Of a DNA stretch of 64,000 nt, positions 16,188 to 46,050 are shown in pieces. The notes below the pieces were generated by a model, which worked only from the letters and a program-made list of their open reading frames with translations, searched no databases and had not been told where the DNA came from. How positions within the stretch are numbered: the stretch's first letter is position 1; the number at the start of each line of letters is the position of its first letter. The translations under genes and the position numbers were made by a program. This DNA is from Planctomycetia bacterium (GTDB lineage: Bacteria > Planctomycetota > Planctomycetia > Planctomycetales > Planctomycetaceae), in assembly GCA_026400935.1 (NCBI GenBank), contig JAPLNX010000165.1:2097-66096 (forward strand), written 5' to 3'.

Positions 16188-16224
16188 GACACCCGGCGCA
16201 GTTATCTGCGTCGGGTGTTTTTCT
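16188..16224 (+). terminator. rho-independent terminator for the DUF1549/1553 gene
   Basis: cgacacccggcgcag-ttat-ctgcgtcgggtg, a 13-bp stem with one G-U pair, followed by tttttctt. The right arm overlaps the last codons of the convergent gene. Confidence 0.6.
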
Positions 16225-40798: not shown

Positions 40799-40922
40799 CC
40801 CCACCGAGCTTGTCTCGGTGGAATCGGGCCTTTGCACTACGAGTGGTTTTCAATCGGCAGAAAACGTGTTTGCGCGACGTAGTGCAGAAGCCCTGAATCC
40901 ACCGAGACAAGCTCGGTGGGGG
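40799..40922. repeat. nested palindromic intergenic element, family A, copy 3 (best preserved)
   Basis: ccccaccgagcttgtctcggtggaatcgggcctttgcactacg ... cgtagtgcagaagccctgaatccaccgagacaagctcggtgggg. Each end also forms a local hairpin ccaccgag-cttgt-ctcggtgg. Confidence 0.85.
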
Positions 40923-40969
40923 TTGTGTCTTGTTCCGGATGCGGGGCAAGTCACAACCTTGAGGATGCC

Positions 40970-43777
<2,808 letters not shown>

Positions 43778-43778
43778 C

Positions 43779-43838
43779 GAGCACGATGAAATCGTGCTCC
43801 ACGAGACGTGGGGCACGTTTTCAACGTGCCTGCCCCTC
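43779..43838 (+). repeat. REP doublet, family B, copy 1 (3' flank of RAYT)
   Basis: gagcacgat-gaa-atcgtgctc, then ccacg-aga-cgtgg, then ggcacgtt-tt-aacgtgcc. It fills the gap between the mutS stop and the RAYT stop. Confidence 0.85.
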
Positions 43839-44502
43839 TCACAGCGCAAACTCCCGAGCCGACGAATATCGGTACTCCTCCGCCCGCTCCACCAACCCCG
43901 GCACCACGGGGTTGCCATGCACATAAGCCACGATCCGTTCCAACTCATCCTCATCGCGCACGCAATGGTCGTAAGACTCGCGTTGCCAGAACCCACCCGT
44001 TTCGCCGAGCAACTTGTTGCACTCCAGCGCCGAGTGCCGATTCACCGAATGCTGAATCCGTTGCCGAGGCGACCGCTCGTCGGTCGCCGGTCCCAGCGAC
44101 CGCACCCATTCGTCGAGTGGCCGGAAGACCCAGTGATAATGGCTGGGCATCACCACCCAAGCGATCAAGTCGTACCGTTCGCCGGCAAAGTGTTTCAGAG
44201 ATTTCTCGACCGCTTCCGCCAGTCGTTCGTCTTCCAAGTGTCGTGCCGCCGGTCGTCGATCAAGCCAGTCGTCGATCAAGCCAGTCGTCGTACTTGGCAA
44301 AGACCTGCTTCCATTTCTTGGTTTTCCAGTCCTCAGCGGACAAGCCCGCCGGTTTCGGTTGTCGTTCGAGGCTGCTGCGGAACCGTTCGATCTCGACCAA
44401 GCCCTGAGCCGGGATGCTGCCGAGCAAGCAGGTCGTGATGAAGTAGGTCGCACCGGGCAAGTCCCAATGCGGGAGTCTCCGGCGTGAGAACTTTTCGCGC
44501 AT
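43839..44502 (-). pseudogene. REP-associated tyrosine transposase (RAYT / IS200-like Y1 HUH) gene, frameshifted
   Basis: N-terminal frame (track ORF 44260..44574): MREKFSRRRLPHWDLPGATYFITT...KYDDWLDRR. C-terminal frame (track ORF 43839..44615): PAARHLEDE...VVMPSHYHWVF (HUH) ... AYVHGNPV (Tyr). The frames are separated by a perfect 16-bp tandem duplication at 44253-44284. Confidence 0.85.
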
Positions 44503-44528: not shown

Positions 44529-44586
44529 GAGCACGATGAAATCGTGCTCCACGAGACGTGGGGCACGTTTCCAACGTGCCCGCCCC
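44529..44586 (+). repeat. REP doublet, family B, copy 2 (5' flank of RAYT)
   Basis: gagcacgatgaaatcgtgctccacgagacgtggggcacgtttccaacgtgcc is nearly identical to copy 1 and in the same orientation. Confidence 0.85.
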
Positions 44587-44696: not shown

Positions 44697-44755
44697 GGGC
44701 GCGATGAAATTGTGCCCCACGCGGAGCACGTTTCCAACGTGCTCTCCCCTCCCCC
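44697..44755 (+). repeat. REP doublet, family B, copy 3
   Basis: ggcgcgatgaaattgtgcc-ccacgcg-gagcacgtttccaacgtgctc, upstream of the TPR gene. Confidence 0.75.
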
Positions 44756-44785: not shown

Positions 44786-45988
44786 ATGCGAATTCCCTTG
44801 CGGCGGTTTCTGTTCGGGCTGTTGCTGGTCGCGTGGAGCGTGTCCGGGGCGAGTGCTCAGGAATCGCTTCGCCAAGCGTACAACGACAGCGGCTATAAGA
44901 CGCGTGAAGAAGGCAAGTACGTCGAGGCCGAGCGGCTGTTCCGTACGGCGATTCAAGAAGCCGCATCCGCTCAGGTCCAGGACAGTACGCTCGCCGACAG
45001 CCTCAACGGCCTAGCGGTGTTGCTTCAATATCACGGCAACAACTACTACGACGCCGAGCAACTCTACAAACGCGCGTTAATACTACACGAAAAGTTTAGC
45101 GGGGCTGATTCGGCGAACGTGGCTACGACTCTCGGCAACCTCGCGGGGCTGTACAAGTCGCTGGCGAAGTTCGCGGAAGCCGAGTCACTCTACAAGCGGG
45201 CGCTCGCGATCAAAGAACAGAAGCTGGGCGCTAACCATCTCGAAGTCGCCACGCCGCTCAACAACCTCGCGGTTCTATATGAATCGCAAGGCAATTACGC
45301 GGAAGCCGAGTCGCTCTATAAACGGGCGCTCGCGATTCAAGAACAGAAATTAGCGCAGGACGATCCTAGTATTGCCTTGACGCTCAGTAATCTCGCGACG
45401 TTGTATGTTTGGCAGGGCATGTATTCCGAAGCCGAGCCGCTCTTAAAGCGGACGCTCACGATCCGAGTGCAAAAGTTCGGAGCCGACCATCCCGATGTCG
45501 TGAGCACACTCGATAACATGGGCTCATTGTACACACGGCAGCAAAGGTTCGAAGAAGCGGTCGTGCTGAAACGTCGAGTGATTAGGATTCAGGAAAAGAA
45601 TCAGTTGGCGGAGGTTACCGCTCCGGCCGGTACCATGCAGGAACTGGCCGCGCTGCTAGAGATTCAGGGGGAGACCGACGAGGCGGCGAAGCTCGACGCG
45701 CAGGCGTTAGAGGTGATTCGCCGCCGACCGCGAATCGGCGACACCACCGAGGCGCTGCGACTCACCAAAGAGGGGAACACATACTTCGAGAAGGGAGACT
45801 ACCTCCGCGCTGAAAAACTGTACTTTTTTGCGTTCATCCGTTACGAGCTTGCACTTGGTCCAGACGCTGCAAACGTCGCGCAGTTGTGGGACAACCTGTC
45901 TCGCGCGGTCGCCAAACAAGGCCGCGAAAAAGAAGCCGCCGTCTACACCCGCCGAGCCGAACGGATTCGACAAGGGCTAGGGAAGTGA
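44786..45988 (+). CDS. exported tetratricopeptide (TPR) repeat protein
   Basis: Signal peptide MRIPLRRFLFGLLLVAWSVSGASAQ. Repeated units AEAESLYKRALAI.EQKLG..H..VA..LNNLA.LY. Confidence 0.8.
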   Translation: MRIPLRRFLFGLLLVAWSVSGASAQESLRQAYNDSGYKTREEGKYVEAERLFRTAIQEAASAQVQDSTLADSLNGLAVLLQYHGNNYYDAEQLYKRALILHEKFSGADSANVATTLGNLAGLYKSLAKFAEAESLYKRALAIKEQKLGANHLEVATPLNNLAVLYESQGNYAEAESLYKRALAIQEQKLAQDDPSIALTLSNLATLYVWQGMYSEAEPLLKRTLTIRVQKFGADHPDVVSTLDNMGSLYTRQQRFEEAVVLKRRVIRIQEKNQLAEVTAPAGTMQELAALLEIQGETDEAAKLDAQALEVIRRRPRIGDTTEALRLTKEGNTYFEKGDYLRAEKLYFFAFIRYELALGPDAANVAQLWDNLSRAVAKQGREKEAAVYTRRAERIRQGLGK

Positions 45989-45993
45989 TTCGG

Positions 45994-46050
45994 GACGAGC
46001 ACGTTGGAAACGTGCTCCACGACGTGGGGCACGATTTCATCGTGCCCGGA
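45994..46050 (-). repeat. REP doublet, family B, copy 4 (inverted relative to copy 3)
   Basis: gagcacgttggaaacgtgctc-cacgacgtgg-ggcacgatttcatcgtgcc matches the reverse complement of copy 3. Confidence 0.8.

Follow-up and report, generated by a model that had tools for sequence, protein, structure and literature searches.

The window, a 64-kb stretch of a draft planctomycete genome (G000; 643 contigs, 8.14 Mb, N50 19 kb, 55.8% G+C), carries a split gene on its minus strand between mutS (40916–43777, plus strand, with five MutS Pfam domains) and a TPR gene (44786–45988). This gene, which the public record gives as two separate CDSs of 80 aa (P0123, N-terminal) and 153 aa (P0121, catalytic), is a class-2 REP-associated tyrosine transposase (RAYT/TnpA-REP). 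The locus contains the following features:

43779–43836, no strand: REP doublet of 58 nt, made of two 25-nt units head to head and 3 nt apart, where the stops of mutS and RAYT converge; folds into two hairpins of 9 bp each (z = -6.7)
43839–44252, minus strand: catalytic part of the RAYT, shifted by +1 with respect to the frame of the N-terminal part, with the HUH motif (PSHYHW), FWQ and the catalytic Tyr in YVHGNP
44252–44290, no strand: perfect period-16 run, comprising the 16-nt unit twice, after which the 7-nt microhomology GTCGTCG (coding strand: CGACGAC) occurs for a third time
44260–44502, minus strand: N-terminal fragment of the RAYT, 80 aa, with strand beta1 (RRLPHWD/YFIT) and a family-specific two-helix hairpin, ending at a TGA made by the frameshift (secondary structure taken from the model of an intact orthologue)
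44529–44586, no strand: REP doublet of 58 nt, 27 nt upstream of the RAYT start codon; z = -5.4 and -6.2
44697–44744, no strand: third, more degenerate REP doublet, further upstream and adjoining the start of the TPR gene; z = -2.4
45997–46047, no strand: fourth REP doublet, head to head, just past the stop of the TPR gene

We observed that the 16-mer TCGTCGATCAAGCCAG occurs in two identical tandem copies, at 44253–44268 and 44269–44284. The perfect period-16 run is longer than these two 16-mers, spanning 44252–44290 (39 nt, 2.44 copies), and on the plus strand it reads GTCGTCG-ATCAAGCCA-GTCGTCG-ATCAAGCCA-GTCGTCG. TRF called the run at period 16 with 2.7 copies and 96% matches, because the preceding GCCG resembles GCCA. 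At periods of 12 or more, this is the sole perfect tandem repeat in the 64-kb window, and at random one would expect about 1.5e-5 perfect tandem copies of 16 nt in it (64000 x 4^-16). Across periods of 10–39 the whole window held one further perfect tandem repeat, an 11-mer (TCTCGTGCCGA, 2.2 copies) at 878–901; removing one copy of it in a crude collapse test made the reading frame no longer (2325 vs 2031 nt).

The N-terminal frame (MREKF...) opens on the minus strand with an ATG at 44502, reads MREKFSRRRLPHWDLPGATYFITT...KYDDWLDRRLA and ends at a TGA at 44260–44262, inside the 16-nt repeat. The frame one base on reads ...DDWLDRRPAARHLEDERLAE...VMPSHYHWVF...FWQRESYDH...AYVHGNPV...REFAL and reaches its stop at 43839–43841. 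Leaving out one 16-nt copy in silico gave a single frame of 215 aa, a joined reading that was made for searches only. The initial annotation had described a perfect 16-bp tandem duplication at 44253–44284 and a minus-strand frame that stops after KYDDWLDRRLA, and had proposed that dropping one copy would unite the RRLPHWD/YFIT, HYH and YVHGNPV parts; all of this was borne out by the sequence. In the model of the intact orthologue, the duplication is positioned at the end of the second helix of the two-helix hairpin. The 80-aa fragment would therefore consist of strand beta1 and the hairpin, with everything catalytic out of frame.

The joined reading matched the NCBIfam model NF047646 ('REP-associated tyrosine transposase') with 83 bits against a cut-off of 80, and the catalytic C-terminal part alone scored 78 bits. 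The sole PDB sequence match was E. coli TnpA-REP (4ER8), in an alignment that set HYH (in PSHYHW) against HMH and YVHGNPV against YIYINPV (Y115 and N119 of 4ER8). Among 90 homologues, H116, Y188 and N192 were invariant and H118 was at least 90% conserved. Quentin et al. 2018 (PMC6006769) give Y---NP as the signature of class 2 (TnpA-REP/RAYT). An AlphaFold (AF2) model of the intact orthologue L013 (pLDDT 91.2, pTM 0.86) returned 4er8_A as its top Foldseek match (E 1.4e-7, TMt 0.68), followed by 29 chains of IS200/IS605 TnpA (IS608, IS200 and ISDra2).

Pfam searches gave a different picture. Neither the two fragments nor the joined reading matched any Pfam family at E<=0.1, and the intact orthologue and the C-terminal fragment matched nothing, Y1_Tnp (PF01797) included, even at E<=10. 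The Y1_Tnp profile overlooks this RAYT clade although the fold is clearly the same, and the miss is probably due to a 55-residue two-helix hairpin, at about residues 32–77 of the model, that comes between strand beta1 and the remainder of the core. The Y1_Tnp/RAYT identity given in the initial annotation is upheld by the NF047646 score, by 4ER8 in both sequence and fold and by the dispersed flanking REPs described below, but the gene is not matched by the Pfam Y1_Tnp profile itself. The RAYT is present in single copy in G000, where the next paralogue is 36% identical, and it is vertically inherited at a fixed site between mutS and the TPR gene. An IS200/IS605 insertion sequence was considered and rejected, on the grounds of a Y---NP motif in place of Y---Q and of a single copy in place of multiple near-identical ones.

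The 25-nt REP unit, 5'-CGTGGRGCACGWTTYCAWCGTGCYC-3', comprises a foot, CGTG, that is conserved, and after it a hairpin of 9 bp. The doublets on either side of the RAYT gene (43779–43836 and 44529–44586) are 97% identical and lie in the same orientation, and the former is conserved in the orthologous loci L001, L013 and L014. Folding as single-stranded DNA gave two hairpins per doublet, with z of about -5 to -7 for well-preserved doublets. Across the G000 assembly we counted 98–114 REP units, with none for a reversed-pattern control, and 42 clusters were doublets. The stem covaries among these units: positions 6–24 are A-T in 59 and G-C in 48, and positions 12–18 are T-A in 93 and A-T in 17. 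REP units avoid long open frames (0.53, against 0.84 for random positions). Each of the 21 genomes of the genus contained the unit, against 0 of the 20 outside it, again with reversed-pattern controls of 0. We also observed that the head-to-head arrangement (gap <=3 nt) occurs in four doublets of G000, all of them at the RAYT locus, and that the 41 dispersed doublets are tail to tail with a spacing of mostly 15 nt.

REP sequence varied with the clade of the neighbouring enzyme. RAYT orthologues of at least 68% protein identity were flanked by REPs with GCACG/CGTGC stems, and orthologues of 52–62% identity by REPs with GCAGG/CCTGC stems that kept the CGTGG foot (loci L003, L004, L068 and L072–L075 were compared with L001, L013 and L061–L067). 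The two stem types represent a compensatory change. More distant homologues had neither GCACG- nor GCAGG-stem REPs alongside, and the REPs of G000 were almost exclusively of the GCACG-stem type. The clade thus offers a clean case of co-variation between REP stem and enzyme (GCACG vs GCAGG) within a group of RAYTs missed by Pfam. At one locus (L075), two REP units lie within the RAYT reading frame itself (1869 and 1902). The 36% identical paralogue of G000, at 16200–17125 of contig C387, is intact and is flanked by a different REP family, GGAGGATGGGCACTCCTGCCCGTC, with ~103 copies in the genome. Because this paralogue has its own repeat family, there are two pairs of REP family and RAYT in the genome, and the first REP family has no cognate enzyme other than that of the broken gene. 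Homology to characterized RAYTs would predict that the enzyme acts on GCACG-stem REPs.

The ancestral state of the gene could be read from its relatives. Three syntenic orthologues (L001, L013 and L014) are intact, show 95–98% protein identity and are exactly 16 nt shorter. Among the syntenic orthologues, that of the sister species G020 keeps the same mutS–doublet–gene–doublet–TPR order and is 96% identical. On two ENA metagenome contigs (L013 and L014) the gene is intact in the same context, is 98% identical and carries CGACGACTGGCTTGATCGACGAC. These two contigs read CAAGTA-CGACGAC-TGGCTTGAT-CGACGAC-CGGCGG, which is the window sequence minus one unit and contains a 7-nt direct repeat at 16-nt spacing, as slippage requires. 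The presence of CGACGAC-TGGCTTGAT-CGACGAC in the closest relative suggests that slippage between 7-nt direct repeats accounts for the event. G020 has GACGAC...GGCGGC at this site and the CGACGAC...CGACGAC microhomology was present only in the window lineage and in L013/L014; it is thus of recent origin and is not conserved.

One copy is the ancestral state. All 584 homologues from a protein search are single proteins of about 215–250 aa, and 80 related metagenome loci all match in one frame. No split at the duplication site was found among the three syntenic orthologues, the 36 cluster members covered, 584 homologues and 80 metagenome loci. An exact look-up of the 80-aa fragment for independent assemblies found nothing, and a scan of metagenome and genome contigs with a pattern accepting either the one-copy or the two-copy allele gave no match. 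Among the three close orthologues dN/dS was about 0.15, and the window branch carries four synonymous and two non-synonymous changes and no other lesion. These values indicate that the break is young; it is younger than any detectable relaxation of selection. A recent slippage-type frameshift had been proposed when the locus was first annotated, and the comparison with relatives, all of which have one copy and an intact gene, supports that proposal: syntenic relatives are 16 nt shorter, L013/L014 preserve the exact pre-duplication sequence with its 7-nt microhomology, and the window branch shows no decay.

We consider it likely that the locus is a REP/RAYT module whose gene has truly been knocked out by a one-off, very recent and lineage-specific slippage duplication. 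The module would consist of a class-2 Y1 HUH enzyme bracketed by doublets of the 25-nt unit. On the model of E. coli TnpA-REP, the enzyme would bind single-stranded DNA at the REP hairpin and foot, cleave and religate the strand beside it, and in this way maintain the REP population. The 16-nt tandem duplication would have arisen when replication slipped between two CGACGAC repeats that the ancestral sequence carries at a 16-nt spacing. The duplication would then shift the frame after Arg78, and translation would be expected to halt after 80 residues, so that the HUH and tyrosine motifs are cut off from strand beta1 and the two-helix hairpin. Because the frameshift separates these parts, the enzyme is predicted to be dead. 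The first REP family would be left without its cognate enzyme, and the second would retain its intact RAYT paralogue. The most likely reading is an unremarkable knock-out of very recent date, in a system of known kind, with the two-copy state known from one draft assembly.

An alternative that we regard as unlikely is that the second 16-nt copy was introduced by assembly, polishing or merging, or is a minority variant picked by the assembler, in which case the organism's gene would be whole; the initial annotation had likewise named a sequencing error as an alternative. The assembly is a fragmented draft, and the two-copy allele was found in no other assembly scanned. Perfect tandem duplications of period >=12 number 129 in the assembly, and about 43 of them have periods >=20; about two thirds of the latter have periods not divisible by 3, as if unselected. 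Besides the one in the RAYT gene, at least 11 duplications in the assembly, all with periods not divisible by 3, interrupt long reading frames of real genes, among them genes for an ABC ATPase, for the specificity (S) subunit of a type I restriction-modification system, for transposases and for giant surface proteins. These gene-breaking duplications reflect either many very young pseudogenes or a technical artefact, and as a group they may point to a technical cause. The ORF-length collapse test by which they were counted undercounts, as it failed to flag the split RAYT, whose C-terminal frame by chance remains open further upstream. Perfect duplications of period >=12 had a density of 15.8 per Mb in G000 and of 6.7 per Mb in the complete same-family genome G021, a difference of about 2.4 times that rests on small counts, the comparison having covered 800 kb of two complete related genomes.

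Three points argue against an artefact at the RAYT locus. The 39-nt run is shorter than the 47 nt needed for a 31-mer to repeat, and by this reasoning it should create no de Bruijn ambiguity at the usual k. The ends of the duplication fall on a pre-existing 7-nt direct repeat at 16-nt spacing, which is a signature of polymerase slippage and is unlike joins made by k-mer overlap. Finally, perfect duplications also occur several times per Mb in a complete same-family genome, and when the comparison was confined to those with periods not divisible by 3, their density in G000 (6.6 per Mb) was near that in a complete same-family genome (5 per Mb).

Examples of perfect tandem duplications elsewhere in the assembly, given as contig and position, are C10:41617-41681, C200:20235-20320, C239:924-962, C272:3548-3650, C408:6912-6949 and C615:10850-10962. 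Another lies on the window's own contig, ~10 kb past the end of the window (C529:76045-76098). Most of the gene-breaking duplications have exactly 2.0 copies and are without flanking microhomology.

The initial annotation had also raised the idea of a reversible on/off switch, in which gain and loss of the 16-nt unit by slippage at CGACGAC would make the RAYT phase-variable and so gate REP mobility. Short tandem repeats are unstable, and a perfect duplication can revert precisely by slippage; the duplication here provides 23 nt of direct-repeat homology, so that precise reversion is possible. If the switch were real, the sole cognate RAYT of the CGTGG-foot REPs would be phase-variable, with REP mobility on only in rare revertant cells. 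We nevertheless consider this idea very improbable. The two-copy state occurs in none of the relatives listed above (syntenic orthologues, cluster members, homologues and metagenome loci), and the site is not a conserved slippery tract, as the G020 sequence illustrates. Two copies of a 16-mer are also an arrangement that is not typical of contingency repeats. With no relative in the two-copy state and a microhomology that is not conserved in the family, the switch found no support.

It is barely conceivable that an active enzyme is still made, through +1 ribosomal frameshifting at the repeat or through association of the two fragments: apart from the break neither fragment has a blemish, each has the full DDWLDRR segment and the public annotation has two CDSs, but the stop context, GCU UGA U, holds no known shifty motif such as the +1 slippery site CUU UGA C, the C-terminal fragment is missing both a conserved start and the beta1 strand of the central sheet, and the arrangement was seen in none of the 584 homologues and 80 metagenome loci.

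The preferred reading, a REP/RAYT module recently inactivated by slippage, places the locus among described systems. The closest is E. coli TnpA-REP/RAYT with its REPs (4ER8; class 2 in Quentin et al. 2018, PMC6006769; REPIN-RAYT systems in Bertels and Rainey, PMC3116915), which shares the HUH motif and the catalytic Tyr in Y---NP and was the best match in both sequence and fold. Both systems also have a single-copy gene at a fixed chromosomal site, flanked by REPs, with REP doublets dispersed genome-wide. The E. coli REP likewise has an unpaired 5' foot and a hairpin, and the GTGG within the planctomycete CGTGG fits the GT[AG]G foot. The differences lie partly in the protein. The structural model places a 55-aa two-helix hairpin between beta1 and alphaA of the planctomycete RAYT (model residues about 30–80), and the only beta1:alphaA insertion named in the available text of Quentin et al. 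2018 (PMC6006769) is one of 10 aa, in subclass 2.3. The planctomycete HUH motif reads HYH, Pfam Y1_Tnp gives no match and the gene is frameshifted. The repeats differ as well, in that the planctomycete doublets beside the gene have a head-to-head arrangement with 3 nt between the units and the dispersed ones are tail to tail, mostly at 15 nt.

IS200/IS605 TnpA enzymes (IS608 and ISDra2; class 1) share the fold and the placement of the gene between two hairpin-bearing ends in the same orientation. Unlike them, the planctomycete RAYT has Y---NP and not Y---Q, is present in single copy, is syntenic across species and lacks tnpB, and its hairpins are dispersed without the gene. By the features compared here, the system works like and belongs with class-2 TnpA-REP/RAYT enzymes and their REP/REPIN populations (PMC6006769, PMC3116915, PMC3733652). 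Three local peculiarities stand out, namely the large helical insertion between beta1 and alphaA, the Pfam mismatch and the restriction of head-to-head doublets to the RAYT locus. As a mutation, the frameshift is a slippage duplication of the ordinary sort. It shares with classical duplications at short direct repeats a 7-nt microhomology in the ancestral allele that bounds the unit, perfect copies and restriction to one lineage, and shows no notable difference from them.

Taken alone, the event matters little: it adds another domesticated REP transposase, seen shortly after a loss-of-function mutation. Its value as a natural experiment is modest; here ~100 REPs have just lost their cognate enzyme beside a REP family whose RAYT is intact. 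Sister species retain the enzyme, which would allow the decay of a REP population after RAYT loss to be compared between them, as modelled for REPIN-RAYT systems.

The neighbouring mutS gene carries a repeat insertion of its own. At 42924–43000 it contains an inverted doublet of a third 25-nt repeat, GGGAGGGCGAGGCTCCCGCCGAGCC, of which there are ~24 copies in the genome; the doublet is translated in frame, just ahead of the MutS Walker A loop. We considered whether this mutS, acting as a mutator, lies behind the many duplications in the assembly, and rejected the idea on two grounds: inserts in the same loop differ among other members of the genus, so the one here is not special, and mismatch repair does not act on loops of 16–70 nt. 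Each of four other genus genomes has a different insert at this loop, which makes it a tolerant, hypervariable site.
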